43,089 nucleotides of DNA from the UHGV virus genome UHGV-0203456. One strand, written 5' to 3'. Of this stretch, positions 574-43,089 are shown piece after piece. This DNA is from a virus. Under the pieces are notes generated by a model. That model did no database searches. It had not been told where the DNA came from and saw nothing but the letters and a program-made list of their open reading frames with translations. Each line of letters starts with the position of its first letter. Position 1 is the first letter of the stretch. Position numbers and translations under genes: made by a program.

Positions 574-589
574 TTTTCAGGAGTATTTT

Positions 590-1063: not shown

Positions 1064-1152
1064 AAAAGCCCCGTGCTACAACACGGAACTCTTTCCTCAT
1101 TTATGAGAATTATTCAATAAATACATTATATCAGAAATGGGGAGTTTTAAAA

Positions 1153-3457: not shown

Positions 3458-3720
3458 TTGCCCCTTTCGTGCCCCTTTTTTAATTCAAAACAAATAAAAA
3501 AAGGCTTAAAGCCTTTGACATCAACTATAATTCAGACACATGGCGGCACTTGCTTAGTCTTTCAAGCGTATTTTACGACTATTTATAGCCTTGTAAAAAC
3601 ACTGTTAAATCAAGAATATTATAATTTAATACTATATATTTTTTTACAATCTTTTACAATTTTTGCCCCTTTTTTGCCCCTTTATTAATAGCCTTAGCTT
3701 TTTGACTCTTTTTTTTTATT
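3458..3720. other. candidate attP region downstream of int with repeated GCCCCTTT motifs
   Basis: Two motif copies at 3461-3480 and two at 3662-3685 flank a roughly 180-bp AT-rich segment. The int terminator hairpin GGCTTAAAGCC lies at about 3501-3512. Confidence 0.35.
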
Positions 3721-6316: not shown

Positions 6317-7585
6317 TCATTTCACTACTGGAAACATTGCCTCTAGTCGAATATACCATGGCGAAGTTTTAGGCCAATCTTTTTTATAATATACCGGAAT
6401 TTCTTTTCCATTGTTTTTACGATATAGCTCTTTAACAATATTAACTTCATCATTATGATATACTCGTCGTGTATTGACCCCATTACAAAACATCATTGTA
6501 GTTGCTGAGCCATTTATATCTAAAGCTCCAGTATTCGGATTAATTGGTCGTTCATATAAACATTGCATAGTTGTCAGTCCTCCATTATTAGTAATTCCCT
6601 CAGTACTTGCATCAATTTGTGCAAGTTTACCAGGATTTTGTTTGTTTATTGAATTATAAGTTGGTATTAACATATTAAAGTAATTTTGATAGCCTGTCGC
6701 AGCATAGTCTGAATTTGCTCCACCTATGCGAAATAAGCCCTTACAGTATTCTTCAATTGAATTTGCACCTTCAACATTATATAAGCCATTTCTTTTTGAT
6801 AATACAAATGCATATGCTTTAAAAAAATCGTTCATGGTTGCAAAATGAATATAATAACCACCTTCACCAACTGGTCTTGCTGACCCACGACTCATATTAA
6901 TTCCTAAATCAGCTGGAACGCTAAAAGGTTCCGAAATTCCTGCCCAATTATTGTCTTTACTTCCAACAATTGAAATGTTTGGATCACCCCAGTGACTTTC
7001 AATAAACATTTGTGCAATCATAAAACTTGGCTTGATATTATATTTTTTTCCAGCAGAAATGATTAGACGAATATTTGATTCTGAAATGCTTTTTCCTGCA
7101 TTTAATAAAGCTCCGCCCGTATAAATTCCACCATTGCCACCGTTATTACTAGAGTCTCTGCCAGAACCATCTAAATTAATTACTTCTCGTGGATTGATTC
7201 TCTGCCATTTACCACCACGCCACACTTCAAAATGAAGATGAATACCTGTGGCACCCCCAGTTGCTCCACATAATCCAAGAACCGTTTGATTTGTTACTTG
7301 TTGTCCTACTGATACATTTATAGTTGCTAAATGCCCATAATAGGTCCAGTAGTTATCCATATGTCTGATAACAATGTAATTACCACCAATTGGATGATTT
7401 GGTACTACCTCTTCTACTGTCCCAGATTTAGCTGAATAAACAGGTGGATTAGTACCTGCTTTTGGAGCTAAGTCAATGCCTCCGTGAATTCCTGCTTGTC
7501 CTCCGCTCAAATAATCAGGTTCATCCCATTCTTGAGTTGCTTGATAAGAAACAGCAAGAGGACTTAACCATGTGTCTGCCATAAT
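6317..7585 (-). CDS. peptidoglycan hydrolase: N-terminal M23 peptidase domain plus glucosaminidase/muramidase-like domain
   Basis: M23 motif GIHLHFE, then FMIAQMFIESHWG (FlgJ/glucosaminidase-like). Real start is MADTWL at 7585, preceded by AAGGAGGGG. The 5' extension to 7657 in the ORF track is spurious. No signal peptide. Confidence 0.7.
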   Translation of the reverse strand: MMADTWLSPLAVSYQATQEWDEPDYLSGGQAGIHGGIDLAPKAGTNPPVYSAKSGTVEEVVPNHPIGGNYIVIRHMDNYWTYYGHLATINVSVGQQVTNQTVLGLCGATGGATGIHLHFEVWRGGKWQRINPREVINLDGSGRDSSNNGGNGGIYTGGALLNAGKSISESNIRLIISAGKKYNIKPSFMIAQMFIESHWGDPNISIVGSKDNNWAGISEPFSVPADLGINMSRGSARPVGEGGYYIHFATMNDFFKAYAFVLSKRNGLYNVEGANSIEEYCKGLFRIGGANSDYAATGYQNYFNMLIPTYNSINKQNPGKLAQIDASTEGITNNGGLTTMQCLYERPINPNTGALDINGSATTMMFCNGVNTRRVYHNDEVNIVKELYRKNNGKEIPVYYKKDWPKTSPWYIRLEAMFPVVK

Positions 7586-7759
7586 TCCCCTCCTTAATAT
7601 TCTTTCCATGCGTCCATGGAGAACATATGTCTGGAATGGCAACAGTTTTTTTGACAAATTTTATAAGGTGCAGAACTTCTTTCCGTATGCTATTCCGATT
7701 GTCCTTGACAATGAGCCTCCTCGGATGTGACGATCTTCGGCAGGAGCTAACAGTTAAAG

Positions 7760-8596
7760 TTAGACTGCCTCGCTAGCGTTAGCACATCCGAGCTCATTAT
7801 CAAGGATTCGCTGCGCCAATCTCTGGTTACGGTAACCAACCGGTGTCTCGTAGCCAAGTGTACCGTGCAACCGAAGGTGGTTCCACCAATTGACATAGTC
7901 AAATAACTCCAAATCCAATTGTTGTAAGGTTTCAAATGTGTATTGATAGACAAATTCTACTTTCAACGACTTATAAGTTGATTCAGCTACGGCATTATCA
8001 AAAGGACAGCCTTTATGACTCAATGATCGATTGATGTCAAAAGTTGTTAATAATTCATCAATAGCTTGGTTATCAAACTCTTTTCCACGATCAGTATGAA
8101 AAATCTCAACCTCTGTCAGAGGTTGTTTGATACGGCTAAATGCTTTTTTTACTAGAACGGCATCTTTATGTTCTCCACAAGAATAGCCGAGAATTTCTCG
8201 ATTGAACAGATCCAAAATGAAACAGACATAATTCCATTTTTTCCCGACTCGTACATAAGTCAAGTCTGTTACGATCGCTTCTAATGGGTTGTCTCTTAAG
8301 AATTTACGATTCAATACGTTTGTCGTTTTGGCTTCATTGCAAGTAGAATGATGTACTTTAAAATAAGCAACAGTATAGCTCGATTTTAATCCTCTATTTT
8401 TCATGATTCTACTAATTTTTCGTCGGCTGATCTGAATGCCTCGTTTTGATAAGGCTTTTTTTATTTTTCTTGAGCCGTAGGCCTTTCGGCTGCGGATAAA
8501 TTCTTCAGCGACTACTTCTTCAAGTTCTGATTCGTCTTTCTTTGGTTTTGATTGATAATAATAGGACTGACGTGATAGACCTAATATTCTGCACAT
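7760..8596 (-). CDS. IS3-family transposase OrfB (DDE integrase core); frame continues upstream to the frameshift site
   Basis: DDE-type motifs (…HTDRGKEFDN…, …NAVAESTYKSLK…), typical of IS3/IS150 OrfB. Confidence 0.8.
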   Translation of the reverse strand: MCRILGLSRQSYYYQSKPKKDESELEEVVAEEFIRSRKAYGSRKIKKALSKRGIQISRRKISRIMKNRGLKSSYTVAYFKVHHSTCNEAKTTNVLNRKFLRDNPLEAIVTDLTYVRVGKKWNYVCFILDLFNREILGYSCGEHKDAVLVKKAFSRIKQPLTEVEIFHTDRGKEFDNQAIDELLTTFDINRSLSHKGCPFDNAVAESTYKSLKVEFVYQYTFETLQQLDLELFDYVNWWNHLRLHGTLGYETPVGYRNQRLAQRILDNELGCANASEAV

Positions 8597-8631
8597 CGCT
8601 GATATAGGGTAAAGATGCTTATTCGCATCGA

Positions 8632-8961
8632 TTACTTGTCTCTTCGTCCGAATATCAGCGCTGCTTGCTTTAAAATATCATTTTCCATTTCTAATTGCTG
8701 GTTTCTTTTACGTAGTTCTAACAATTCTTTTTGTTCAGGCGTAAGATTATCTTTTTCTTTGAATGAACCACTCGTTTTAAATTGCTTTACCCATTTGTCA
8801 AATGCTGAAGCCGTTAGTTCATATTCTCGAATGATTTCTACACGTGGCTTTCCAGCTAAGTAAAGATTGACGATTTGTTGCTTGAATTCTTGTGAAAAAG
8901 TTCTTCGTGTTCTCTTAGACATAAAAATTCCTCCTGGTATGTTTTCTTCTAGTCTACACAC
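8632..8961 (-). CDS. IS3-family transposase OrfA (HTH)
   Basis: MSKRTRRTFSQEFKQQIVNLYLAGK..., coiled-coil LELRKRNQQLEMEND; canonical OrfA. Confidence 0.8.
   Translation of the reverse strand: MCRLEENIPGGIFMSKRTRRTFSQEFKQQIVNLYLAGKPRVEIIREYELTASAFDKWVKQFKTSGSFKEKDNLTPEQKELLELRKRNQQLEMENDILKQAALIFGRRDK
8668..8674 (-). promoter_or_regulatory. -1 programmed ribosomal frameshift heptamer T TTA AAG (orfA to orfAB)
   Basis: In the orfA frame the codons are ATT TTA AAG. After a -1 slip the reading frame gives ...ASSADIRTKRQVIDANKHLYPISAMCRILGL, continuous with OrfB. Confidence 0.5.
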
Positions 8962-9039
8962 CTTAATTTTTCTGTCTAGTTAATTGTAGCCTATCCAGTC
9001 CTTATCTAAAGTCTATAACTAAACACACCCTTTTTTTGC

Positions 9040-9420
9040 TCAAACTTCTAACCAACCTAATTGTCGTGCTAATTCCTCTAAGAATTCACTATCCCTCCTT
9101 TTAATCGTTGATAAACTTAAATAAGTTTCATAGGCCACAATTTCATTCTTTTTACGTGGATAGCCATTTTTATACTTAGAAATAAAAATATCACGTACAT
9201 CCGATGTTGCATCTGATAAAACCTCTTCAACTGTATTTAAAAAAAACTTATGAAAAACTATTTGGTTCAAACTTATTTTTTCATTTGACTTTTCTTCAAA
9301 GTATAAAGAAAAAGAAGATTGGGGGTAAACTAATGCATCTTCATACTTTTTTAATTGTTTTTCTATTTTTTTATAATCACATAATAATTGACGAATATGT
9401 TTTTTTATTTCTGATTTCAT
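9040..9420 (-). CDS. hypothetical protein downstream of endolysin
   Basis: 126-aa ORF with good coding texture and no recognisable motifs. Confidence 0.45.
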   Translation of the reverse strand: MKSEIKKHIRQLLCDYKKIEKQLKKYEDALVYPQSSFSLYFEEKSNEKISLNQIVFHKFFLNTVEEVLSDATSDVRDIFISKYKNGYPRKKNEIVAYETYLSLSTIKRRDSEFLEELARQLGWLEV

Positions 9421-9432
9421 ACTGCCACTCTC

Positions 9433-10692
9433 CTAATAAATTAATGTTTGCCCTGGATAAATTAAGTTAAGATTAGTTAACCTGTTTCGCTGTGCTAAAG
9501 CTTGGTATGTCGTACCAAGTTTGGCTGCAATACTTGATAAATTATCACCGTATTGAACCGTGTAAACGTTGCTTACTGCTGATCCATTTACTTTCAAAAA
9601 TTGTCCAGGGTAAATAAGGTTTGGATTAGCCAATTCATTTAACGAAGCTAAAGTTTGATAATCAGTACCGTATTGGTAAGCAATGCTCGATAATGTATCG
9701 CCATATTGAACCACATGTGTTGCTTCTGGTTGTTTATCAGGAACAGTTGTTGAATCTGGCAATAGTTCAATATCGCCTTTACTAATCCACGATAAGATGC
9801 CTTCTAGCAACACTCTGCTTCCAGTTACTTCTTGCACTTTATAGCTGTTTCCTTTTACCCAATCTGGAATAGCTTCACCAGTTGCCCAAGCATCAACATT
9901 AAATTTCACTTTGACGGTATCACCGACTTCAACTGCAGAAGTAGGTGTTTTATCTGCTTCTTTACCTTCCTCAATAGCTGGTGTGTCCGTTTCTGGTTTG
10001 TCAGTAGCCGTATAACCATTATCAGTGATACCTGTTAAGTCTACGTTACCATCTAACCCACCAGCAATATAAGTAGATGTAAACTGCCAAATTGCAATAC
10101 CATCCATACTTGGAAAATAGTTATACAATGGACTTGGTGTTACCTCATAACTAGGATATGCAGCAATCCATAAAGAGTTAGGAAATTCTTTAATAATTCG
10201 CTGATAATCTACATATTGCAATGTAAAAGGTTTGTATGAATAATACATTGGCGTGTACCCTGCTTGTTTAATTCGGCGCATGCCATATAGGATTGTTTCC
10301 GTATTGGCGTTTACATCAGGACTAGCTCCATGTTCAAAATCTAATGCAACAATGGAATTTTTAGGCGTTTGGATACGTGGCAAGAAATAATCCATTGTTG
10401 TTTTAGCAATGTCCATGCTACCGAACGTATCGTACCAGATATAAGTGTGCGCTCGTTTTCCTTGAGCAATGGCACTTGCTACTTGCGTTTTATAGGTATA
10501 CTGCTCGTAAATACCACTAGCATTGTAGCCGCCAATTTGAGCAATAGCGAATTTATCATGAGCATAACCAAAACGACCTTGTTCACCTTGATAAATGGCC
10601 CAATCAACACCTTGATCGCCTTTGGTAGCAAATACATTTAAAGGCATAAAAAATAGAGCGATTAACGCTCCGACTAAAATTTTCTTTTTCAA
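9433..10692 (-). CDS. endolysin: Sec-type signal peptide + GH25 muramidase + two C-terminal LysM domains
   Basis: N-terminus [24 protein letters not shown]25 motifs (GIAIWQFTS). Two LysM repeats ([13 protein letters not shown]..., [13 protein letters not shown]...). Confidence 0.85.
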
Positions 10693-10697
10693 TTCGT

Positions 10698-10901
10698 TTA
10701 CTCCTTGTCTTTTAAATTATATGCTGACACACCTGTTACTACTCCTAAAAAAGTTGCAATGGCATTGATAGTTAAAACAGCCATATCTGTTTGCTGCCAT
10801 CCATAACCTTTGCCTAACGTTGCTACTAAAACAGATATGGCTGGAAGTACAGTAAGTACTCCCCATTTGATAATTTTGTAGTACTTATCTGGTAGAATCA
10901 T
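10698..10901 (-). CDS. holin (small 2-TM protein)
   Basis: 67 aa with two hydrophobic helices and a charged C-terminus (NLKDKE), immediately upstream of the endolysin. Confidence 0.65.
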
Positions 10902-11125
10902 TTTTTTGCTCCTTTCAATTCTATTATGTCATGTTCCGCTTCTTGCATTCGACCTTCTAATTTAAAAGTTCTTTCAATTACACCATTATGTTTTTCTACT
11001 TTTTTTTCTAACTGTTCTATTCTGTAAGCTGTCAAATTGGCACTAGCTACCACGCCAATAAACGCACCAAATGTACTGCCTACTAACCCTATTACAGCAA
11101 CAACTATTTCATTTGACAAAATCAT
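10898..11125 (-). CDS. XhlA-like membrane protein (holin-associated)
   Basis: N-terminal TM helix plus a C-terminal coiled coil (RIEQLEKKVEKHNG...), as in XhlA/hemolysin-like lysis accessory proteins. Confidence 0.55.
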   Translation of the reverse strand: MILSNEIVVAVIGLVGSTFGAFIGVVASANLTAYRIEQLEKKVEKHNGVIERTFKLEGRMQEAEHDIIELKGAKK

Positions 11126-11198
11126 TCCTCCAATTTAAAAACCGCTTAGCTTTTTGCTAAACGGTTATTTCATTTAAATAAATTTATAAAAATCATTA

Positions 11199-12962
11199 TC
11201 ACGTTAAGTATCTTAAAAATCCTCTCAAATATAAAACCGTATATGAAGATTGATTAGAATTACTTTGAAATGCAATAGTATCGCCAGCTTTTACATCAAA
11301 TACATCTGTCAAACCAGCAGCGTGTAATCCTCCTGTACCTTGATTACTCCTGTTCATAACTGCATTACTCTTTGTAAGCTCAATATTACACCAACCTGCT
11401 GGAGCATTGGTTGTATAGCTAGTAACAACACTAATTATTCCATCTTTTAATACTTTAATTTTATTCGCTGATAACTCAAAAAATTCATTATTAGTGATGA
11501 CCTTTTGAGAAATAGGAATGACCTTAATTCCTGTACCACTGATTGATACTGTATTAGGGGCAGAAAAAGCTATTACTTTTTCAGAAATAACAGTTTGTCC
11601 AGCGATTTTCGGAGGATTCATAAAATCTTTTGTTCCTGCTATTTCTTGGTCTCCAGTTTGAGTCACCGCTTGCCCTTTAATAGCATCTGCAACATTTTTA
11701 GGGCTCATATATTTGGTCGTTGATGTTCCAGCAGATGCTTCGCTATCAGTAGCAAATCCATAATTTTTAACATTGCCCAAGCCAACTTGACTTGCTGTCA
11801 CTTTATGTGGATTGTCTTGACTTTCCGTATGCTCCTTTAGTTGTTCCTCTCTTACAAAGCCACTTTTTGCTAATACATCTTGCGCATTAATACTAATTTC
11901 TAATTGAATAGCTGAATAGTCAACATCCAGATTAGCAGTTGTCACTCCATTTGATGGATCTGTATAGCTAATTAGATAGATAAAACCCTCGCTAGTAATG
12001 AAATTTTTATCAGTGACTTGAACTGATAAATCTTTGTATTCGCCAGCATTTTCTTGAATTTGAGTGGTCCACGAGTCAGTTGACTCAATATAAGTGGAAA
12101 CTTTAATTGTTTTGTTGTTAGGTGTAGTGGCTTTAACACGTTCACTAATAGTAAAAGCGACAAAACTATCTTTTAATAAAACCACCGCTTCTTCTTGACT
12201 TAATCCTTCAAAATTTTGAGGAATTAATTTTTTTGCAGCTTCTAAAGCATTGAACACTCCTAACTGTTGTGGTATAACTCCGCTTTGCGTCGAACCACTA
12301 CTCACTCCAGAATCATCACGGCTTACTAATTTGTTGTAATCAGATTGAGAAACTTCATTCCATGTATCTTTTGGTTTTTTTAGTACTTTAGCTGTTACAT
12401 CTGTAAAATATTGATTTGCATTTGTTGCTGTATTACCCGCTGTTTTTCCAGTGAAATCCATAGGTACTTTTACGTTTGTTGTTCCAGAAAGTAACGATAC
12501 TCCTTCTGATTTTGTCATGCGGTCATTAAAGTCAACTTGTAATCGAGTAGCTAATGTTGATTGTGTTACCCCTTGTGTATCTGTTCTCGCTTGTACGATT
12601 TCAGGATTACTGTCACCAGCTTCTCCAACAAGTTTTTCAAAGTCATTACGCAAAGCATCAAATTCTTGTTTATTGTTGTTTGCTGTAGATACCGCTTGAT
12701 TTGAAGTATTAATAGCCGTTTGAGAATTAGTTAAAGCTTGGTTTGCTGTTTCATTAGCTTGATTACCTGCTTGTTCTGCAATTTGTACAGCTTCTTTTCC
12801 GGCGTCGTCAGCAATTTTTTTGGCATCATTAATTCCTTCTGTCAACCGACTTTGATAATCATTTATTTTTTCAACAGCAGTATTAGATTGATCCAAAATT
12901 GCATTAATTTTAATTCGACCTTGATTCAGCGTGTCGGTTTCTTTAATTTGCTCGATAGCCAT
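11199..12962 (-). CDS. tail fibre / receptor-binding protein with N-terminal coiled-coil shaft
   Basis: Start is MAIEQIKE at 12962 after AGGAGTG. The ORF track extension to 13016 is spurious. Long Q/N/A-rich coiled coil followed by a beta-rich C-terminal domain, in the last position of the tail module. Confidence 0.6.
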   Translation of the reverse strand: MAIEQIKETDTLNQGRIKINAILDQSNTAVEKINDYQSRLTEGINDAKKIADDAGKEAVQIAEQAGNQANETANQALTNSQTAINTSNQAVSTANNNKQEFDALRNDFEKLVGEAGDSNPEIVQARTDTQGVTQSTLATRLQVDFNDRMTKSEGVSLLSGTTNVKVPMDFTGKTAGNTATNANQYFTDVTAKVLKKPKDTWNEVSQSDYNKLVSRDDSGVSSGSTQSGVIPQQLGVFNALEAAKKLIPQNFEGLSQEEAVVLLKDSFVAFTISERVKATTPNNKTIKVSTYIESTDSWTTQIQENAGEYKDLSVQVTDKNFITSEGFIYLISYTDPSNGVTTANLDVDYSAIQLEISINAQDVLAKSGFVREEQLKEHTESQDNPHKVTASQVGLGNVKNYGFATDSEASAGTSTTKYMSPKNVADAIKGQAVTQTGDQEIAGTKDFMNPPKIAGQTVISEKVIAFSAPNTVSISGTGIKVIPISQKVITNNEFFELSANKIKVLKDGIISVVTSYTTNAPAGWCNIELTKSNAVMNRSNQGTGGLHAAGLTDVFDVKAGDTIAFQSNSNQSSYTVLYLRGFLRYLT

Positions 12963-12972
12963 TTTCTCACTC

Positions 12973-13146
12973 CTACTCTGCATTAATATATTCAATTGTA
13001 GCTTTTTGTAAAACACGATTTCCTATTTTGATGAATGGCGAACTATTATCAATCAGTTCTGCAAAATAATCATCTAATGTTTTACCTGATTCATCATTGA
13101 TTATAAATTCTTCTTGTTTGCTAATTAGTTTTACTGTTAATCTCAT
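12973..13146 (-). CDS. small protein (57 aa) between Tal and fibre
   Basis: ATG at 13146 directly follows the Tal stop, and its own stop lies 10 nt before the fibre start. Not in the ORF track because it is under 60 aa. Confidence 0.3.
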   Translation of the reverse strand: MRLTVKLISKQEEFIINDESGKTLDDYFAELIDNSSPFIKIGNRVLQKATIEYINAE

Positions 13147-15165
13147 TTAAAATTGTCCTCCTAGTTGTGATTGTATAAAAACACGACAAATAACTTGCGC
13201 TTCGATTCGTGCAAGTTTGTTAGGTATTATCTTGATTGTATGATTACCTCTAGAGATTTTACCTCCACTAGTTTTCCTAAGATAATTAACAATGTTTAAT
13301 CTTTGTTGGCTAGTATCGTGTACTGGAATGGTGGTACCATCTACAACTATATCAACACTAGTTGCGCTACTTGGTGCCTCATAAATCCCCCATTCTAATG
13401 GATGGCTATGATCAGGTAAAGTAATTTGGTGTGTATGTGCCGGTATTCTTACTTGGTGGCTATGGTTAGGAACCGATATGCTGTGAGTATGGTTTGGTAT
13501 AGAAATATTAAAATTGTGACTATGGTTAGGTGTATTCACTGTATGGGAATGTGCCGGTGTAGTCACGTTATGAGTATGATTACCTGAGCTCGTCTTTGTG
13601 TACCAATCTGTTGATGCAGTCGACATCAGTCTAAATCTCATACCTGACCCCGCATCCATTTCTCGATAAAATGCACTTGATTCAGTGCTACCATTATTAG
13701 ATGCAACAAGGTGATTATGATCTCCACCTGCTGAACTTGTTTGTGAACTTTGACCATTTACAGAACTAGATTGAATACTGCCTCCCCCGCCACCTGTAGT
13801 GGATCCACTAGAATAACCTCCGCCAGCTGAACTTGAAACGACACTTCCGCCACCAGCCGAGCTCGTTTGCGTTGAAGCTCCTCCAGCTGAAGTACTTTTA
13901 ACCGTAGCTCCGCCTCCTTTTACGGCTTTTGTGTAGCCACGATATCTCTTTGTTTTGAAAGTAAGTTCTACAGTATTTACATGAAATACATCATCATCTA
14001 AGAAGAATTCAATTTCTGCTGGGTATGCCTTTTCGCAGTTATCCTGATAACTATAGTTCAAAATATTCGTTGCACCTTGCGAGTATGTCTCATTTATTTC
14101 CTGTTTACGTTTCAAATCAGACATTGTTGTAGTAAAATCGTCAGATAAATTACCAAGCTCTAGCTGAATATCTTGTGGGGAGCCGAAAACATCCTGTTTT
14201 GTCTCTTTTTTAATGCGCAAGTTTATGCTTCCAAAGTCATCTGTGTTAATCATAATTACAGTTCCTTGTCTTAACTTATCAATGCTTAAAGGTTCATCTG
14301 TTAATTTCAATAAATCAGCCGCAGTCACATCCCAAGAAATTTTAGGTTGTGCCCATTTTTTTAACATGTTGATTGCATTGTCTTTTAAAGCTTGTGGAAC
14401 TGTGAATCGTTGGTCCACCCATACATATTCAACTAAACCATGTTCTTTTATAGACTTTGCATCTTCTACATAAGGAATATTTTTATTCACTGATTTTATA
14501 TTTATCTGGTTAACCCCTTCACCAGCCCCCAAAGGATAAACTCGATTAACTAAATTATTGGGGTCTCTTTCAATCTCAAAACCTTGCATGTTATATCCTT
14601 CTTGAATACGAGCAATAGGTTCTTTTGGCGGCTTCACTAAAGATAATTCGAATGGATAAACTTTGGTATTCCACTGCCACATGTAGTCTTCATCAAATGC
14701 TTGAGGGATACTAAACAAGGCATCAGCAAGACCATTTTCATTTTCCCATGCATAACTAAAATATCGAGTGAATTCACATTTTTTTAAAACCCAGTGCTTT
14801 GTCCTTTGTTTATTCAAAAGATAGTTAATAACATCAATTGTTTTTCGATTAACTAGTTCATGATAACCAAAAAGAACTGTGTCTAGTAAAGTACAGAGGG
14901 CTTCATTTGCCGTGTACGTGATCGAATTGTTACTAGCATCTTTGCGAACAGTTGAAGGCATAACCCGGTATAACCCTATATATTCATTCTCATTATCTGT
15001 TAGTTCAACCCATAACATTTCTTGCAAAAATTCATTTTTAGGATCATCCAACGGCATTGAAAATTCTAGATTACCTATTTGGTTTTCAATTTTTTCATAT
15101 CCAACATTATAAGCGTTATCTAAAACTGCCGTATATTCTCTTTTTAAATCCATTGCCATCAACAT
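13147..15165 (-). CDS. tail tip protein (Tal-like, prophage-tail endopeptidase family N-terminal domain) with Gly/Ser linker and C-terminal HxH repeat needle
   Basis: Position after Dit. N-terminal region typical of siphovirus Tal. Low-complexity GGS linker. Eight HxH motifs with 9-11 aa periodicity at the C-terminus. Confidence 0.65.
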   Translation of the reverse strand: MLMAMDLKREYTAVLDNAYNVGYEKIENQIGNLEFSMPLDDPKNEFLQEMLWVELTDNENEYIGLYRVMPSTVRKDASNNSITYTANEALCTLLDTVLFGYHELVNRKTIDVINYLLNKQRTKHWVLKKCEFTRYFSYAWENENGLADALFSIPQAFDEDYMWQWNTKVYPFELSLVKPPKEPIARIQEGYNMQGFEIERDPNNLVNRVYPLGAGEGVNQINIKSVNKNIPYVEDAKSIKEHGLVEYVWVDQRFTVPQALKDNAINMLKKWAQPKISWDVTAADLLKLTDEPLSIDKLRQGTVIMINTDDFGSINLRIKKETKQDVFGSPQDIQLELGNLSDDFTTTMSDLKRKQEINETYSQGATNILNYSYQDNCEKAYPAEIEFFLDDDVFHVNTVELTFKTKRYRGYTKAVKGGGATVKSTSAGGASTQTSSAGGGSVVSSSAGGGYSSGSTTGGGGGSIQSSSVNGQSSQTSSAGGDHNHLVASNNGSTESSAFYREMDAGSGMRFRLMSTASTDWYTKTSSGNHTHNVTTPAHSHTVNTPNHSHNFNISIPNHTHSISVPNHSHQVRIPAHTHQITLPDHSHPLEWGIYEAPSSATSVDIVVDGTTIPVHDTSQQRLNIVNYLRKTSGGKISRGNHTIKIIPNKLARIEAQVICRVFIQSQLGGQF

Positions 15166-27644: not shown

Positions 27645-28970
27645 TTAAAACATTCTTTTTATTTTGTTTCTTTGATTTTTACTAATTTTAGTTTTTTTCT
27701 TCGCCCACATGTCTTCATTAAATCCGTAACGTGTGGCATCAATTGTATGATTGTCTTTATCTTCTAGTCTCGGTTTAGGATTACCATCTCTATCAGTCTG
27801 ATAATCAATGTTTTCAAATTCCTTAGCTATATTTGGAGTCCTCAATGGATCGATACAAATAAAATCTAAGTCATCTAGCCATTGCTCACCATATTCAACC
27901 GAATCCGGGCCTTTTTTAACACCTTTTATATGATTGATACCATGCTCATTTACTAACTCTGCATTACTTTTGGGCTCAGCAGAATCAGAAAAAATTTCAT
28001 CATTTTGATAGCCCTTTTCATGTAGTTTTTTAGCTAATTCCCTATTACTAATTTTCACACCATATATCTCATCAATAGCATAGATACCATTTTTCTTTTT
28101 ATCATAATGCCATCGAACGAACGCTAACGGATCAGTTGCATAGCCGAAGTCAAGACCGTTTCTGATATTATCAAAGTTAGTTACCATTTCATCAGTTATA
28201 CAGCCTTTCTCCACTTTTAGGTTACTGAATGGAACTACTCCAGAACCGATTGCTTCACCATCGTATTCCCATCTAGCACGCAAAGGATTTCTATCTCTTG
28301 CTGCCTCCACTTCTCTCAAGAATTCTCTCGAAATAAAAGGATTATCTTTATAAGTAGAGTGATGAACAAATGTATTCTCAGGTTGGAAACTAGATTCATA
28401 TTTTTTGTTCACCCAAGATTGTCGACGTTTTGGCGGGTTGTAGCTGAAAAAGAATTTATAAAAAAGACCATCTCCTAATTCACCACGTAAAAGTGAATTG
28501 GTAATGGTCGTTACTTCATCTTCAGTTTTAAACTCGCCTAACTCCTCAATCCAGCCAATCGCAAACGGGAATCTACTATCTTTTAAAGACTTGATTCTTT
28601 CGGGATTTTGGGCACCTCTGAAAATCATATAATTCCCACGAGGTATGTATGTGATTCTTAACGGTGATTTATTAAATTTAAATAGATGCGTTACCCCTTG
28701 CTGTTCAATCGCCCACTTCATTTGCTCGTAGATTGATTGTTCTAATGTATTATCAACATATCGAATGCCAACCGCATTGACAGCATACCTCATAAGTAAT
28801 TGAGTAATAATATGTGCAATATCTGATGATTTACCAGAACCGCGTCCACCCTTACAAACAATATTCAGTATGTCCGAGTTAAGAGTTGCTCTCCATACCG
28901 AATGAAATTTTTTCGGTAATAATTCTGATAGTTTTTTCTTAACCATCATCATCACCGATATCATCAACAA
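27645..28970 (-). CDS. terL: terminase large subunit
   Basis: Walker A CKGGRGSGKSS and a C-terminal nuclease region. The real start is probably a few codons inside (MMMVKKK), since the annotated start overlaps the terS end. Confidence 0.9.
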   Translation of the reverse strand: MLMISVMMMVKKKLSELLPKKFHSVWRATLNSDILNIVCKGGRGSGKSSDIAHIITQLLMRYAVNAVGIRYVDNTLEQSIYEQMKWAIEQQGVTHLFKFNKSPLRITYIPRGNYMIFRGAQNPERIKSLKDSRFPFAIGWIEELGEFKTEDEVTTITNSLLRGELGDGLFYKFFFSYNPPKRRQSWVNKKYESSFQPENTFVHHSTYKDNPFISREFLREVEAARDRNPLRARWEYDGEAIGSGVVPFSNLKVEKGCITDEMVTNFDNIRNGLDFGYATDPLAFVRWHYDKKKNGIYAIDEIYGVKISNRELAKKLHEKGYQNDEIFSDSAEPKSNAELVNEHGINHIKGVKKGPDSVEYGEQWLDDLDFICIDPLRTPNIAKEFENIDYQTDRDGNPKPRLEDKDNHTIDATRYGFNEDMWAKKKTKISKNQRNKIKRMF

Positions 28971-29409
28971 ATACTGGCATTTCAGTAACTTCTATTTGTT
29001 GCTTGTCAGTGAACAGCGCATGACGTTTACCGAGTAATTCGGCTGCTTTAGTCCTCTCTTCCGTACTAGGGGTATATTCATAGCTTTTTTGATGAGTGAA
29101 TACTTCTCCTTCATCATTAGTTGTTTCGGTATTATAAACACCTTTCATTTTTTCACCACGCATGGTGCTAGTGAGATATTCTAGGACTTCTTGTGCATCT
29201 GCAACTCTTTCGTTCTGCATCTTTTCTAGCTGTTCATCAATATATCGCTTCACGTTAGCATCTGTTAGCAGTCTACTTGCATTCACTCTTGCTGTGGTGT
29301 CTTTTTTTATGTTTGGATATGCGACTTTATACGCTCTCGTACCATTCATATCAATCAGCCATTCATCAGCAAAAACCTGATGTTTTGGATTCCTTATCAT
29401 GTTATTCAC
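28939..29409 (-). CDS. terS: terminase small subunit
   Basis: 156 aa with an N-terminal DNA-binding-like region, immediately upstream of terL. RBS AGGAGGTGAAT. Confidence 0.75.
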   Translation of the reverse strand: MNNMIRNPKHQVFADEWLIDMNGTRAYKVAYPNIKKDTTARVNASRLLTDANVKRYIDEQLEKMQNERVADAQEVLEYLTSTMRGEKMKGVYNTETTNDEGEVFTHQKSYEYTPSTEERTKAAELLGKRHALFTDKQQIEVTEMPVFVDDIGDDDG

Positions 29410-29543
29410 CTCCTAATTAATTTTATGTAAATGTGCGACAGATACACAAATACCTGTTATACTCTTTATAAGGTAGCGCTCCTTTTTTAAAAACTTAAGT
29501 TCAGAAACTACAATCTATCTTAATTTTGACACTAACGCTACCT

Positions 29544-29577
29544 AGCCACTAGAACCCATAGTCTAGTGGCTTTTTTA
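29544..29577 (+). terminator. plus-strand intrinsic terminator hairpin upstream of terS (antisense orientation)
   Basis: AGCCACTAG-aacccatagt-CTAGTGGCT followed by TTTTTTAT on the plus strand. Confidence 0.45.
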
Positions 29578-29582
29578 TGTAC

Positions 29583-29609
29583 GAAAAAAAGACCACTAAA
29601 TAAGTGATC
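29583..29609 (-). terminator. rho-independent terminator of the accessory gene
   Basis: Minus-strand TAG-ATCACTtatttAGTGGTC-TTTTTTT. Overlaps the stop codon. Confidence 0.55.
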
Positions 29610-30447
29610 TATTTTTCTTGATTATTGATAATAAAAAAGCGTATAAAATCTTTTCCAAATTTTGATATTTTCAATCTATCCTTCGCTTTAAGACTTATCT
29701 TACTTTTGCTAGTTAGACTTTTCAATTTTATTTTTCTTTTCCCAGACAAAGAATTTAATATGCTCTCTGTAGAATTTCTAATTTCCTCAATAGCAATTTG
29801 CATTTTTTTTATGTCTTTTGCAAGCTTATCATCATATTCATTTTGCATTAAGCCTAACCGATATAAGTTCTCTCTAACTGCAACATATTGGTCGTAATTG
29901 ATATCGAATGCTTCTAATAACTCTGTATAGTTATTGTATCCATCGATATCAGCAAATGTATTGGTTTTATAGGACAATTTAAGAACTGAAATATCTAAAA
30001 TAGTCAGTTTATCAAGCGTATCAAAATATAAATAAGCCACATCAAAAGATGGATTATCCAAATTCAAAAATTCTGAATAACCATTAATCATAAATTCAAT
30101 TTTTTCTGCTTGATTAGTAGATTCAATTTTCTTCATGACCATTTCAAATATTTCGTCTAAAACTTCCTTATTTTCTAAAGATTGTTTTTCAAATTTCTCC
30201 TTCAATTCTTCGTTTCTTCTACTGATTGCTTGAACCATAATCTCTAAGTTTCTTATTTTCTTATTCGTCCTAAACTCAGTTATAGCTCCCCCAATGCCCG
30301 GTATCAAACCAGCTCCGTAATCAATCAATATATCACCACCTTGCTTCACAATTTCATTTGTTAATAAAGGTAAAGCATTTTCTTTTAGAAAGTCTTTTCC
30401 CTGATCAGCTACTATTGACAAAACATTTTCAAATAAAAAATTTTTAA
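29609..30447 (-). CDS. insulated accessory (moron) protein of unknown function, coiled-coil rich; candidate defence/abortive-infection gene
   Basis: Roughly 279 aa. The annotated ATG at 30538 lies inside the upstream terminator, so the start is more likely GTG near 30447 after AAAGGGG. Flanked by terminators on both sides. AT-rich. Confidence 0.45.
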
Positions 30448-30649: not shown

Positions 30650-30723
30650 TTGACGTGACAGGAGTCGAACCTGCATGTACTTGATTGAAAACCAACCGCT
30701 CTCACCAATTGAGCTACACGCCA
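30650..30723 (-). tRNA. phage-encoded tRNA, anticodon UUC (Glu) by manual fold
   Basis: Minus-strand TGGCGTG-TA-GCTCAATTGGTGAGAGC-G-GTTGG-TTTTCAA-TCAAG-TACAT-GCAGGTTCGACTCCTGT-CACGTCA-A. Canonical D-arm and T-arm (GGTTCGACTCC). 7-bp acceptor stem with one G-U pair. No encoded CCA. Confidence 0.65.
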
Positions 30724-31326: not shown

Positions 31327-31794
31327 TTATTTATATGCAATTATTTTTCCATTGCGGTAAGCTTCTGCGAATTCAATCAAAGCTTCTGATTTCATTCTTT
31401 GAATACTTCTTTCGGAATAGCCGACTTCTCTAGCAATCTTGTAATTAGAGTAATGGTCCTGCACACAGAAACTATAGTGCAAAATTTGTCTGCTAGTTAG
31501 GCTTAATGCCATAAGCCCAGATAAAATTGCGTCTCTTTCTGCTTCTGCATCTGCTAATTGTACTAGCGCATCTTCTGCTTTGTTCCCATGACTTTGGCTT
31601 TTAGGCATATCTGTAATAATTGGTGATTTTAAATCTATCAAAGAGCGACCAGCTATTCGCTCTAAACGTCTAAAATTCTTCAACACATTTCTGGCATTCG
31701 CTTTTGTTTGTCGAAAATCTACTTCTTTTAGCAATTGAATCAAGTGGAATCGCTCCTTTTGTGGTATAATAACTATGTCGAAAATATTTCTCAC
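31327..31794 (-). CDS. ArpU-family late transcriptional regulator
   Basis: C-terminal sigma-70 region-4-like HTH (YSNYKIAREVGYSERSIQRMKSEALIEFAEAY). Positioned upstream of the packaging genes. GTG start at 31794. Confidence 0.75.
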   Translation of the reverse strand: MRNIFDIVIIPQKERFHLIQLLKEVDFRQTKANARNVLKNFRRLERIAGRSLIDLKSPIITDMPKSQSHGNKAEDALVQLADAEAERDAILSGLMALSLTSRQILHYSFCVQDHYSNYKIAREVGYSERSIQRMKSEALIEFAEAYRNGKIIAYK

Positions 31795-38603: not shown

Positions 38604-39284
38604 TTATCCTCCAATGTGTAATTTCTTGATGGTATCTTGATTTAATTTAATTCCTTTAACATGATATTTTTTCTTAAATGCTGTAATACCAATGTTATGT
38701 TTTTCAGTGTGATGGCATCGGCACAAACCAGCATAAGTGTATTCTGTATGGTCAACGCTTTTTCTTTTGCGCCGACCTAGCGCTTTATCGAAATGGTCAA
38801 TATCTGCACCAGTTTTGCCACAAATGCAACAAACTCGGTTAGTTATACATTTGTAAAAGTAATATTCTTGATTTGCTGGTAAAATGTCGTACCCTTTTTT
38901 GAAAGGAATATTATTTTCAAAGATGAAATTCAAGATAATGTTCGCTAAAATGGTTGCATCGTCCATTGTGTTCATTGAGTCGTTTCTGAGGCTAATTTCA
39001 TAGCCTTGTAACGCTTCAAATCTGAGATAGAACATTTCCTTTAACACTTCTGTTTCTTGCCCTGTGAAAGAGAATATGTCTTCTAGCATTGCAAAGATAA
39101 ATCGACGTTGGGCAACACTAAATTTTCTCGGATCAATAAATCTTATTTCAACTTCTCTTGGCCCTGTATAATCAAAATACATGGTTTTTAATCGTTCAAT
39201 ATTTATTGCTTCGTTTATTACTGCTGTTATTGAGTTGTCTTTCAAACTCTTAATAACAGCAGAATAAACATTGTTTAGGTTCAT
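38604..39284 (-). CDS. Cys/His-rich HNH-like putative nuclease (DUF968-like)
   Basis: C-terminal CCICGKTGADIDHFD...CRCHHTEKH. Confidence 0.5.
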   Translation of the reverse strand: MNLNNVYSAVIKSLKDNSITAVINEAINIERLKTMYFDYTGPREVEIRFIDPRKFSVAQRRFIFAMLEDIFSFTGQETEVLKEMFYLRFEALQGYEISLRNDSMNTMDDATILANIILNFIFENNIPFKKGYDILPANQEYYFYKCITNRVCCICGKTGADIDHFDKALGRRKRKSVDHTEYTYAGLCRCHHTEKHNIGITAFKKKYHVKGIKLNQDTIKKLHIGG

Positions 39285-40204
39285 TCAATCACTTCCACTT
39301 GAATCCCGTTATTAATAATAAAATTGTTTAGAGCAACTAACTTTTGATGTTCTGCTGTTAGTCTTAACGTAACTGTTTTCTCTAGTTGTTTTTTGCTGGT
39401 TTTTGGCGCTTCTTCCGTGATGATTTCGCCTGTCGCAGTGTCAACTGTTTTATTGTTGATTGTTTCAGTTTTCAAAGCAGCAATGGCTTCGTCGTGTTCT
39501 TTTTTTGCTCTTTCACGTTCTTCTTGTTCTTTTTTTAAAGCAACGGCGGAATCAATTTCTTTTATCAGCTCTGGTGCAGTAGACCCTTTATCAATTAATG
39601 CGACCCAAGAAAACGAGTCAAGGCCAACTGCCTTAGCATAATTTTCAACAATGAGCTTATCGTTTTTTATACGTTCTTTTTCAGATGCAACTGCTACCAT
39701 CGATGCCGCTATTTCCTCAATAGTTTTCTTATTTGGTTCACCTTTAACTGTGAAAGCTGTTTTATTAGTCCACGAACTAGGAATTTCAATTTCGTCAATG
39801 GATACATTGTAGTTTTCAGACATTTCAGCAATCACTTTTTGAAGCTTTTTGCTTCGTTTCTGCTTCTCTGCTTCTTCGTATGATTTGATGCTTTCGTTAA
39901 TTTCTGAACTAACTTCACTTATTTTTTCAGTATATTTTTTTATTTTTTCCTCAAAATCTTTTAACGGCTTATCATATTGATTTTTAACTTCTTTACGTTG
40001 ATCATCTAGCAACGTTACAACTTTATTTAAGTCTGCTCTTGCTTTTTTAGCTTCAGGAATGTTTTCATCTGTGAAAATCATTGTTGAATAGTGCTTAACT
40101 GCGCTCTCAACCATCTCAGACAACTGTGCTTCATTTTGGATAGTGATTTTACTAGCTTTAAAATCAACATTAAACTGCAATTCTGTTGTTAATTCGTTTG
40201 TCAT
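39281..40204 (-). CDS. coiled-coil recombination-associated protein (DUF1351-like?)
   Basis: The start is probably MTNE at 40204, overlapping the Erf stop as TAATGA. The 5' extension in the ORF track overlaps Erf. Charged coiled coil. Confidence 0.45.
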   Translation of the reverse strand: MTNELTTELQFNVDFKASKITIQNEAQLSEMVESAVKHYSTMIFTDENIPEAKKARADLNKVVTLLDDQRKEVKNQYDKPLKDFEEKIKKYTEKISEVSSEINESIKSYEEAEKQKRSKKLQKVIAEMSENYNVSIDEIEIPSSWTNKTAFTVKGEPNKKTIEEIAASMVAVASEKERIKNDKLIVENYAKAVGLDSFSWVALIDKGSTAPELIKEIDSAVALKKEQEERERAKKEHDEAIAALKTETINNKTVDTATGEIITEEAPKTSKKQLEKTVTLRLTAEHQKLVALNNFIINNGIQVEVIE

Positions 40205-40881
40205 TAGCTTTGCCCCCATGTAATGTTTTCTTCTGGTTGTGGCTGGAATTGTTGTATCCATTGTTTCAGAACTTCAACAGCTTTATTGAACATACTAGAC
40301 GGCATGTTTTCATTGACATCAACATTCAATTCTTTACTTAGTTCATTCCGCACATAGTCAAGTTCAGAATTCGATAACTCAGAAAGTTGTCTGATATGAT
40401 CATTTAACGTGGCTAACTGTTTACCGCTAATCAAATTAACTTTCGATGTATCATTGTTCTTTTCAGCTGCCGTTTGGCCATCGTCGTCTTTATCTGCTGC
40501 AATTCCAAACGCTGCCGAAAGCGAGTAACGTCTTGCATATGTCGTTAAACTTCCTAATCCTTGAGGATTTGTCCCGCTGTTTGGAAATTCAAAAGGTCCA
40601 TGAACTATATATTGACCACTAACGTGAGTAATAATTGTTGTGACTTTTAACGCATTATTCTCATTGACGACATTTTGTTGAAAATCAATTCCGCTTTCGG
40701 ATTCTTGTGCAGCTTTTCTAATTGCTTCTTCAATCGCTTTTAGAGTTGCATATTGGAAATTCATTGGACCTTTTTTCGTTGTATAGGCAACTTCTGCATC
40801 AAATCTTGGTTGAATTAATTTGCTTTTTAGCTTATACATCCCATCAAACAATTCTTTTAAATTTTCGCTGTTCTCGTTCAT
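40204..40881 (-). CDS. erf: ERF-family single-strand annealing protein
   Basis: LGSLTTYARRYSLSAAFGIAAD motif typical of the Erf superfamily. Confidence 0.7.
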   Translation of the reverse strand: MNENSENLKELFDGMYKLKSKLIQPRFDAEVAYTTKKGPMNFQYATLKAIEEAIRKAAQESESGIDFQQNVVNENNALKVTTIITHVSGQYIVHGPFEFPNSGTNPQGLGSLTTYARRYSLSAAFGIAADKDDDGQTAAEKNNDTSKVNLISGKQLATLNDHIRQLSELSNSELDYVRNELSKELNVDVNENMPSSMFNKAVEVLKQWIQQFQPQPEENITWGQS

Positions 40882-41118
40882 TTATTCCCCTTCTTTCAGT
40901 AATGAAATAACTTTTTGAAGTCCTTCGATTAATTCAACTTGATTAAAATAAGCACTTTCATCTAAACTCTCGAATACTGTTCTAACTTCTTCATCTTCGC
41001 TATCTTGGTAAACAGCAACATGATTATTAATAGCATCCTTTTCAAAAATCAGTGATCCATAAGGTGAATGATTATCAATTAAGACAATTCTTTGCATTGA
41101 ATCCACTTCCACTCTCAT
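40882..41118 (-). CDS. hypothetical acidic protein
   Basis: 78-aa ORF. RBS AGGAGA. Confidence 0.45.
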   Translation of the reverse strand: MRVEVDSMQRIVLIDNHSPYGSLIFEKDAINNHVAVYQDSEDEEVRTVFESLDESAYFNQVELIEGLQKVISLLKEGE

Positions 41119-41149
41119 GCTATAATTCTCCTATCAATTAATTTTGTTT

Positions 41150-41184
41150 GTGACTTTTTGCTTGCCGGCGGAAGTCACTTTTTT
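41150..41184 (+). terminator. plus-strand intrinsic terminator (antisense to the early operon)
   Basis: GTGACTT-tttgcttgccggcgg-AAGTCAC followed by TTTTTTGTTT, preceded by TGcTATAAT at 41118-41126. Confidence 0.45.
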
Positions 41185-41337
41185 GTTTCTTGGATAAATA
41201 ACGCTTCTGGAAATACTGCCTTATTTATCGCAGTGTCTGGATATTTTTCTTTCAGCTTTTGAAATACCAGAGCTTTCGTGTCCTCAACCACGTAAATTTT
41301 CAAACTATCTTTACCAACCGCTTGAAACATCTAAATC
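41182..41337 (-). CDS. small ORF (about 51 aa), unannotated
   Basis: MFQAVGKDSLKIYVVEDTKALVFQKLKEKYPDTAINKAVFPEALFIQETKK. Fills an otherwise empty gap. Confidence 0.25.
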
Positions 41338-41439
41338 CCTCTTCTCTCTTTTTGTTGCGCTATATATATCTGATTTTTTTGTTGCTGGTACCATAAATCA
41401 GCAAGTTTTTTGGTTTGCTGTAGTTTGTCTTTCCTAGTC

Positions 41440-41612
41440 ATTTCTTAACCTCTCTATCTTCAAGTGCCAGATCATAAAATAGTGTCCAAATGATGAATAA
41501 GCCTATATACACATTTTGGATAATTGGATTAAAGTTTCCACCAACTAGCAAACCCAATCCGAAAACAATGAGCAATACTGCAATTCTTCTTAAGTTATAA
41601 ATTTTTCTCATA
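41440..41612 (-). CDS. small membrane protein (about 57 aa), unannotated
   Basis: MRKIYNLRRIAVLLIVFGLGLLVGG..., preceded by GGAGGTAAGTAAT. Confidence 0.3.
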
Positions 41613-41632
41613 TTACTTACCTCCTATAACGT

Positions 41633-41881
41633 CTATTTATTTCGCTTATACTTGTTTTTTTCCCGCCAAACCAAAAATTCATCAAATTTCTGAATGTGGA
41701 TAATTGGCATGCATGATGTAACGAGTCTATATCCATCTTTAAATTCTTTATGTTCCTTAAACTCTCTCAGAAGTTTTTGAAAGGTTGGTTTGTGATGCTG
41801 ATAGCCAAAATAAACAATTGCTTCATCTTTTGCCATCCAAGCTTGCTGTAAATCGATAGTCTTTGCTAGTGTGATTTGCAT
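41633..41881 (-). CDS. hypothetical early protein
   Basis: 82-aa ORF downstream of the antirepressor. Confidence 0.45.
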   Translation of the reverse strand: MQITLAKTIDLQQAWMAKDEAIVYFGYQHHKPTFQKLLREFKEHKEFKDGYRLVTSCMPIIHIQKFDEFLVWREKNKYKRNK

Positions 41882-41896
41882 GTATACATCTCCTTT

Positions 41897-42616
41897 CTAT
41901 GCTGTCTTGTCATGTAAGAACTTGTTAACAAAATATATTTGCCCTTTACCAGTAATTTTCGGCGTTCGACTAATTCGAATACTTCCATCTGGATTGTTAT
42001 GGGTTCGTTCCTTGATTTCCGCAATTCCCAAATCAAGTGACCGCTGGGTTGGCATATTGTAGCTTTCACCTTTTCGAGCAATTAGATACCCATTGTCTCG
42101 CAGCCATTGGAATAAACGATTCTGCCCAATGTCGATGCCGTTTTGCTTGATTAGCTTAGCTAGGTCACCGATTAAAATGGAAGTCTTACTTGCATCAACG
42201 GCATCTGCAAATAATGCTTTAGGTTTTAATGATTCATTTTCTAGTTGTAATACTTCTATTTTTTTCTGTTGAAATTCAAGAGCTCGTTTAGTCACCATTT
42301 CTGGGCTATTCCAAAACTTTTCTAGTTGAATAAAATATCTACGAGCTTGCTTTCCTCTTTCGGTACGTTGTAGCATTGAAATTTCCTTAGCCATGTCTAG
42401 TTTCACATAATGATTTACTTGTGGGCGACCACCAAAAGGTTTATCGGATTTTTCCGAGAAACTGATAAAATCAACGTTTTCATCAAACCCGTATTTAATC
42501 ATTCGTTTAAACCAATCAGTATAATTATCTTTAACTCCCAGAAATTCATATAACTCTCTACCGTTAACTAACTGTTCATCATTTTCATTTGTTGTAACTT
42601 TAATTAGTTCGTTCAT
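41897..42616 (-). CDS. phage antirepressor (AntA/ORF6N N-domain + KilA-C/ORF6C C-domain)
   Basis: N-terminal ...NGRELYEFLGV...DWFKRMIKYGFDENVDF; C-terminal ...KTSILIGDLAKLIKQNGIDIGQNRLFQWLRDNGYL. Confidence 0.8.
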   Translation of the reverse strand: MNELIKVTTNENDEQLVNGRELYEFLGVKDNYTDWFKRMIKYGFDENVDFISFSEKSDKPFGGRPQVNHYVKLDMAKEISMLQRTERGKQARRYFIQLEKFWNSPEMVTKRALEFQQKKIEVLQLENESLKPKALFADAVDASKTSILIGDLAKLIKQNGIDIGQNRLFQWLRDNGYLIARKGESYNMPTQRSLDLGIAEIKERTHNNPDGSIRISRTPKITGKGQIYFVNKFLHDKTA

Positions 42617-42697
42617 ATGATTTCATCCCTTCTATTCTGGTTGTCTTTCGTTCCATTAATGGAACACTTTTCCTTTTTCATTTGTATACTTCCAAAA

Positions 42698-42931
42698 CTA
42701 CCTTTGTTCACAAACGTGAACTTTCTCTTTAAAAAAATATAAATGAATAAAATTTGTTTCCAAGTCTAGCAATTTGCAAGCTTTCGTAATTTCAGTGTCT
42801 TTCCAAGAGACTTTCCCGTTCATTTTCAATGATATTGTTCTCTCCGACAATCCCATTGCGATAGCAAAATTATATTGAGTTCCAAACTTTTCAACAATTC
42901 TTCCTGCTAATTTTGAGTAATCATAGCACAT
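42698..42931 (-). CDS. Cro-like XRE-family HTH regulator
   Basis: 77 aa with an HTH (YNFAIAMGLSERTISLKMNG). RBS GGAGGAGG. Divergent from cI across the window junction. Confidence 0.75.
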   Translation of the reverse strand: MCYDYSKLAGRIVEKFGTQYNFAIAMGLSERTISLKMNGKVSWKDTEITKACKLLDLETNFIHLYFFKEKVHVCEQR

Positions 42932-42948
42932 TTACAAACACCTCCTCC

Positions 42949-43034
42949 AAGTTCATGAACATGAACTTTATAACCATATAATACATTGTTCATTTCTTAA
43001 TGTCAACGAAAAAGTTCATGATTCATGAATTTTT
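42949..43034. promoter_or_regulatory. operator sites of the cI/cro switch (palindromic TTCATGAA units)
   Basis: gTTCATGAAcATGAAc at 42950-42965, half-site GTTCAT at about 42986, TTCATGAtTCATGAA at 43014-43029, flanked by the inverted repeat TCAACGAAAAA/TTTTTCGTTGA. Confidence 0.55.
42977..43005 (-). promoter_or_regulatory. cro promoter (PR-like): -35 TTGACA, 17-nt spacer, -10 TATTAT
   Basis: On the minus strand, TTGACA is the complement of 43000-43005 and TATTAT the complement of 42977-42982. An operator lies at +1 to +20. Confidence 0.55.
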
Positions 43035-43036
43035 TC

Positions 43037-43068
43037 GTTGAAGATATATTCAATATCTTGTATACTTA
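43037..43068 (+). promoter_or_regulatory. cI promoter (PRM-like): -35 TTGAAG, 17-nt spacer, -10 TATACT, then RBS AAGGAGG at 43076-43082
   Basis: Read directly on the plus strand. The ATG served by this RBS is position 1 of the window. Confidence 0.5.
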
Positions 43069-43089
43069 AATCTATAAGGAGGTGTACCA

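Follow-up and report, generated by a model that had tools for sequence, protein, structure and literature searches.

The window, by which we mean the whole stretch of 43,089 nt that was analysed, opens with the cI repressor gene of a temperate phage, which is followed directly by a gene for an ImmA/IrrE-like protein and, further along the same strand, by a tyrosine integrase gene. It closes with the antirepressor gene and mor, both on the minus strand, and with an intergenic region in which two back-to-back promoters and a set of palindromes are found (Table 1). Direct reading of the ends confirmed a preliminary description of this DNA, according to which the last 14 nt (AAGGAGGTGTACCA) are a ribosome-binding site and base 1 is the cI ATG. 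The 3′ end reads ...TATAAGGAGGTGTACCA (over a longer stretch, ...TTGAAGATATATTCAATATCTTGTATACTTAAATCTATAAGGAGGTGTACCA) and the 5′ end starts with ATGGATAGAGTT.... Across the record junction, five nucleotides (TACCA) separate the motif AAGGAGGTG from the base-1 ATG. An in-frame TAA at 43075–43077 stands 15 nt upstream of base 1 in the joined sequence, and since no start codon intervenes between the two, the base-1 ATG is the first possible start of cI.

Table 1. Positions of the genes, regulatory sites and other features in the 43,089-nt window; promoter scores are matches out of 12 hexamer positions.
Feature	Position	Strand	Details
cI repressor gene, 190 aa	1–573	+	TP901-1 CI-type N-terminal HTH domain and hook region, without S24 peptidase domain
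ImmA/IrrE-like Peptidase_M78 gene, 157 aa	590–1063	+	Directly after cI; Pfam score 28 bits (cutoff 22); alignment to TP901-1 ORF3 includes the zinc-motif region
Tyrosine integrase gene, 378 aa	2321–3457	+	Pfam Phage_integrase; region 99% identical to that of phiEf11 at nucleotide level
attP core ACTAAGCAAGTGCCGCCATGTGTCTGA	3532–3558	-	Single exact copy, 74 nt from the integrase stop codon (3457)
Peptidoglycan hydrolase gene	6317–7657		M23 and glucosaminidase
IS3-family insertion sequence, 1,366 bp	7632–8997	-	orfA 8632–8961, orfB 7760–8596
ArpU-like transcriptional activator gene	9040–9420	-	First of two such genes
Peptidoglycan hydrolase gene	9433–10692		GH25 and LysM
Terminase large subunit gene	27645–28970	-	Pfam terminase match, SPP1 type; 98.9% identity to the IME197 large terminase
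Terminase small subunit gene	28939–29409	-	Pfam Terminase_2, SPP1 type
tRNA-Glu (anticodon TTC)	30650–30723	-	Phage-borne; ARAGORN and Rfam
ArpU-like transcriptional activator gene	31327–31794	-	Second of two such genes
Antirepressor gene (AntA and KilAC)	41897–42616	-	After mor, same position as in TP901-1
mor (earlier "cro"), 77 aa, DUF739	42698–42931	-	PDB 6TO6_A (MOR) E 2.4e-26; Pfam DUF739 E 2e-38
Candidate operator OD, AGTTCACGTTTGTGAACA (minus strand)	42705–42722	.	Last codons of mor; TP901-1 OD position
Candidate operator OL, AGTTCATGTTCATGAACT (minus strand)	42950–42967	.	Just downstream of the mor-promoter -10; aligns with TP901-1 OL
Putative mor lytic promoter (PL in TP901-1 naming)	42978–43006	-	TTGACA 43006–43001, 17 nt, TATTAT 42983–42978; 11/12
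OM3-like motif, TCAACGAAA	43003–43011	+	mor side of OR, overlaps the mor-promoter -35; fits TCAACAnAA (Pedersen 2020, PMC7250872)
Candidate operator OR, AGTTCATG ATT CATGAATT	43013–43031	.	Between both -35 hexamers; aligns with TP901-1 OR; at -97 relative to mor in relatives
OM2-like motif, TCAACGAAA	43033–43041	-	Overlaps the cI promoter
Putative cI lysogenic promoter (PR in TP901-1 naming)	43038–43066	+	TTGAAG 43038–43043, 17 nt, TATACT 43061–43066; 9/12
Weak OM1-like motif, TGAATATAT	43044–43052	-	Overlaps the cI promoter; 6/9 positions of TGAACAAAA
cI ribosome-binding site, AAGGAGGTG	43076–43084	+	Identical in phiEf11, IME197 and 8 chromosomes

Joining of the two ends, which had been proposed as a check on circular closure, was carried out with 600 nt from each side. 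The joined sequence was continuous in phiEf11 (28831–30030) and in IME197, at 99.0–99.4% identity. Whole-genome blastn placed window 38605–43089 on positions 8017–12500 of the phiEf11 locus (L005) and window 1–1162 on positions 12501–13660; because these coordinates are adjacent, window bases 43089 and 1 are neighbours in phiEf11, and the cI-mor intergenic region measures 158 bp in both. The exact 40-nt junction was found in nine IMG/VR contigs, while the GTDB representative genomes, which are probably without this prophage, gave 0 matches. In eight E. faecalis chromosomes the 158 nt located 5′ of cI differed from window 42932–43089 by 0–2 mismatches and were followed by mor. Host genes at the boundary, with another sequence 5′ of position 1, had been named as the observation that would speak against closure; the same upstream sequence was present in all eight of these prophages, and no host DNA was detected at the window ends. 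A protein identical to cI was encoded in 2099 blocks of the public collection of assemblies, and many of these blocks were chromosomal. No terminal direct repeat linking both ends of the window was found, nor was there a full-length match to the window in the phage collection.

The genes of the packaging module point to the form that the DNA may take in the virion. Pfam families Terminase_3 and Terminase_2 were matched by the terminase genes (27645–29409), the large terminase was 60% identical to SPP1 G2P over 94% of its length, and the portal belonged to the SPP1 family. SPP1 is a textbook headful (pac) packager. By analogy, the virion DNA is probably terminally redundant and circularly permuted by headful packaging, and DNA packaged in the manner of SPP1 would therefore assemble as a circle without fixed ends. 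When the ends of the phiEf11 record were sought inside the window as reciprocal proof of permutation, no match was obtained, because the packaging modules of the two phages differ. A terminase of the SPP1 type also implies concatemer substrates, and a unit-length slice from a tandem array would have a sequence identical to that of the window. That the window represents one unit length of a head-to-tail repeat (prophages in tandem, or a concatemer formed in replication or packaging) instead of a monomeric circle is nevertheless very improbable. Although the sequence alone would be the same whether it came from virion DNA, from a circle after excision or from one unit of a concatemer, the record starts exactly at the A of an ATG, which suggests deliberate rotation of a circular contig. 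Since the 43,089 positions include only some 65 gene starts, chance would seldom place a cut exactly on the first base of one, and from the position of the cut we infer that rotation to the cI ATG was performed deliberately, by software or by a curator.

Both promoter hexamer pairs that had been claimed for the region between cI and mor were recovered by a pattern scan, back-to-back within the last 158 nt. Matches to the promoter consensus were not above chance locally (4 sites vs. 2.7 expected in a 590-nt region), and the whole window contained 2 sites scoring at least 11/12 vs. 3.5 in shuffles. The consensus score was discarded as stand-alone evidence, since matches are no commoner than in shuffles in this AT-rich DNA. 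The back-to-back geometry and the 17-nt spacers recurred in 13 divergent lineages, and nucleotide alignment matched both promoters with the promoters of TP901-1. The assignment of the two putative promoters is thus supported by position and conservation, not by consensus scores.

Regarding the palindromes, GTTCA-N6-TGAAC occurred exactly twice in 43 kb, at 42706–42721 (OD) and 42951–42966 (OL), and a one-mismatch N7 variant was located at 43014–43030; all three sites lie within the immunity region. The candidate operator OR forms the core of a 39-bp palindrome (43003–43041), the outer arms of which, TCAACGAAA, overlap both -35 hexamers. The OM2- and OM3-like motifs consist of this same sequence and have a one-A spacing, and the OM1-like motif is a weak match (6/9). 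A comparative set was made up of 79 IMG/VR loci with MOR relatives (55–100% identity), among which 13 distinct lineages with a divergent cI could be distinguished. Across these 13 lineages, operator palindromes lay near -36, -97 and +209 relative to the mor ATG; OD was positioned at +209 in nearly all of them, and its half-site covaried with those of OL and OR. Half-site changes occurred at all operator sites together, for example to AGTTAAAA in lineage L073 and to AGTTCAAT in L079. This covariation of half-sites is the strongest evidence here that one protein reads all three palindromes. The preliminary description had proposed a divergent cI/cro switch with shared operators. The divergent promoters and the palindromes of that proposal were borne out. 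The sites do not form a shared tripartite operator, one central OR being accompanied by two outlying sites (OL and OD), and the gene called "cro" encodes a MOR homologue, as in a switch of the CI/MOR and not of the lambda type.

Some further features of the region were observed. The codons that specify the conserved K-V-H at the MOR C-terminus also make up the left half-site of OD, and among the operators of L073 that jointly changed their half-sites is the site that lies in coding sequence. An additional palindrome (GTTCCATTAATGGAAC) is present at 42650–42665, between mor and the antirepressor gene; it resembles a terminator on the plus strand alone, which is the antisense strand for the genes at this position.

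Analysis of the encoded proteins was in agreement with this arrangement of sites. CI residues 5–80 matched the TP901-1 CI structures PDB 6TRI, 5A7L and 3ZHM with E values of about 1e-31 (1.7e-31 for 6TRI_A), and residues 6–124 were 55% identical to TP901-1 CI, to which no similarity was detected beyond residue 124. The Pfam search with CI returned HTH families only (HTH_3) and no match to Peptidase_S24. In TP901-1, the lytic promoter is the site of OL, OD is placed distally in mor, and OM motifs of the form TCAACAnAA lie beside OR, with OM1 inside PR; TP901-1 MOR alone binds DNA inefficiently and requires CI (PMC7250872). Nucleotide alignment of the window with TP901-1 matched OD, OL, OM3, OR, OM2 and OM1. 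By homology, the junction region is predicted to be a TP901-1-type CI/MOR bistable switch. In such a switch CI would occupy OR, OL and OD, by which the lytic promoter would be shut and the promoter of cI itself partly repressed, and a complex of MOR and CI on the composite OM-OR site would shut the cI promoter.

Divergent genes with shared palindromes would also be expected of a lambda-like switch, in which Cro would compete with cI for shared operators and RecA-stimulated self-cleavage would remove cI, and GenBank labels phiEf11 ORF36 and ORF37 as cI-like and cro-like. Such a switch is very improbable here, since the supposed Cro is a homologue of a protein that in TP901-1 needs CI to bind efficiently (PMC7250872), the repressor is without a Peptidase_S24 match, and the operators are laid out as a central OR with OL and OD and not as a tripartite OR. 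As a separate observation on a relative, the cI of IME197 (L003, 27597–28170) is annotated as two ORFs, and tblastn likewise split the alignment of the window CI to this region into two; the repressor gene of that isolate may thus be disrupted.

For the predicted CI/MOR switch, the absence of an S24 autocleavage domain from CI bears on how the lysogenic state could be ended. Several related lineages have a CI with an S24 peptidase domain, unlike the CI of the window. More broadly, the CIs of the CI/MOR family (loci L026–L092) have the N-terminal domain in common and fall into three or more types by their C-terminus, among them an S24-like type and a short type with M78 next to it. Because the autocleavage domain is missing, induction would most likely proceed through inactivation of CI by the putative M78 metalloprotease, the Ant antirepressor, or both. 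The M78-like protein has the motif EELGH where the zinc motif of TP901-1 ORF3 is HELGH, that is, the first His of HEXXH is missing, and its catalytic competence is in doubt because of this replacement. No solved structure was matched by its sequence, and NCBIfam yielded nothing further. The proteins beside cI in L065 and L073 also have no first His. It is conceivable, though rather doubtful, that the phage belongs to a CI/MOR subgroup (defined by a CI without S24 domain or TP901-1 multimerisation tail, an M78 protein with EELGH, and Ant) in which induction might run via a non-canonical or non-catalytic ImmA-like partner. If true, this route would constitute a third way of CI inactivation in the CI/MOR family.

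The attachment site allowed the circular form to be distinguished from the integrated one. According to Stevens, Zhang and Fouts (2025, PMC12540744), phiEf11 has a 27-nt attP core at a distance of 74 nt from the end of its integrase gene, and the attB of the host lies within ffs. Integrated prophages were compared with the window on the integrase side in four chromosomes that share its cI-Ltp-int module and on the other side in three contigs, and ffs as the host flank was taken from PMC12540744. On the integrase side, identity persisted through the integrase and the following 74 nt to the far edge of the core, ending at 3558/3559, after which host DNA followed in the four chromosomes. On the opposite side, identity started at 3532 in the three contigs and ran rightwards with 0 mismatches in 245 nt. 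Both att cores were present in chromosome CANTTA010000001.1, 41,172 bp apart. As homology breaks at both edges of the 3532–3558 core, the prophage is the same circle opened at attP; comparison of the att core with host sites, which had likewise been proposed earlier, showed a single and intact core in the window. The window is the attP form of the circle, with attP closed and the map opened at the cI ATG. Upon integration, the tyrosine integrase would join the 27-nt core to the host ffs, so that the circle would be opened elsewhere than in the record and cI-mor would become internal to the prophage. Although this phage is very common as a prophage, as the 2099 assembly blocks with its cI protein indicate, and the internal IS element suggests time spent in a bacterial genome, the reading of the window as an integrated prophage excised from a chromosome, with prophage-host boundaries as its ends, was rejected as scarcely credible: the one attP core is internal and flanked by phage DNA on either side, there is no duplication at the ends and no host DNA outside, and the ends fall in the middle of a regulatory unit which all relatives have as one uninterrupted stretch.

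With a probability of about 0.92, the window is the complete genome, on a circular map, of a phiEf11-type temperate siphophage of E. faecalis that was opened at the cI ATG and has a TP901-1-type CI/MOR switch at the junction. The proposal that a complete phage genome had been linearised within its immunity region was thereby upheld, as the junction is contiguous in relatives, host flanks are absent and the attP core is single. This reading is directly supported by sequence contiguity, the status of attP, homology, and the conservation and covariation of operators and promoters. Writing such a circular map as a linear record from the first base of cI would make the promoter, ribosome-binding site and operators of cI fall at the 3′ end, and biologically these elements would be situated directly upstream of base 1. 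The apparently split regulatory unit is an ordinary consequence of the opening point of a circular map.

The expectation that every function would be present once and that host genes would be absent was borne out in part: host flanks were indeed lacking, and the window contained an IS3-family element, two peptidoglycan hydrolases and two ArpU-like regulators. The inverted ends of the IS3-family element (TG...CA) are imperfect, and its target duplication is the 3-bp sequence GTC (7629–7631 and 8998–9000). The element is absent from phiEf11, its site being the spacer between the homologues of phiEf11 ORF27 and ORF28, and it is 99.8% identical to sequence in the records named Listeria phage LM 4-11-1 / 4-14-1 and in Enterococcus phage Efs 1-1-1. 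The IS-phage junction gave 0 matches in IMG/VR. Conversion-type genes (Ltp lipoprotein, DUF4950 and GtrII) were located on either side of attP. The window was also observed to be mosaic (at 1153–2253 and 26–31 kb): the Ltp cassette is common to EFC-1 and many prophages and absent from phiEf11, while the match is to IME197 for the large terminase and to EFC-1 for the portal and head region.

Phage type, attachment site and switch architecture have all been published already, and the value of the analysis is correct annotation; no open biological question is moved forward by it. The record is best handled as circular, so that cI retains its promoter, ribosome-binding site and operators, and the appropriate annotation label is phiEf11-like with a TP901-1-type CI/MOR switch. 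It would be a mistake to take the ends for physical termini or prophage boundaries.

Among known phages, the closest correspondence was with phiEf11 (GQ452243 / NC_013696), with which most of the genome is colinear in blocks of 94–99% identity. The immunity region of phiEf11 and of vB_EfaS_IME197 is 99% identical to that of the window across the junction. With phiEf11 the window further shares the integrase and the 27-nt attP core, as well as tail, lysis, recombination and replication modules that are 94–99% identical. It differs from phiEf11 in having the Ltp lipoprotein in place of ORF32–34, in its packaging module, and in that the window record is rotated and reverse-complemented. Similarity to SPP1 lies in the large terminase, the portal and the Terminase_2 small subunit, of a pac type.

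Compared with lambda, the window likewise has divergent lysogenic and lytic promoters, palindromic operators and an HTH repressor, but its CI is without S24, there is no tripartite OR, and the second protein is of the antirepressor/co-repressor type, in contrast to the independently operator-binding Cro. The likeness to TP901-1 extends over the homologous CI N-terminal domain and MOR, the back-to-back promoters with their symmetry around OR, the placement of OL by the lytic promoter and of OD towards the end of mor, and the OM-like motifs (TCAACnAAA) on either side of OR. Gene order is also alike, with int, a sie-type gene (ORF2), the metalloprotease gene and cI on one side and mor, ant and xis on the other. 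Differences from TP901-1 consist in the C-terminal part of the window CI, which is unrelated after residue 124, in the operator spacers, in OM1, which is poorly conserved in the window, and in the integrase, which is a tyrosine recombinase of 378 aa in the window and of the serine type in TP901-1.
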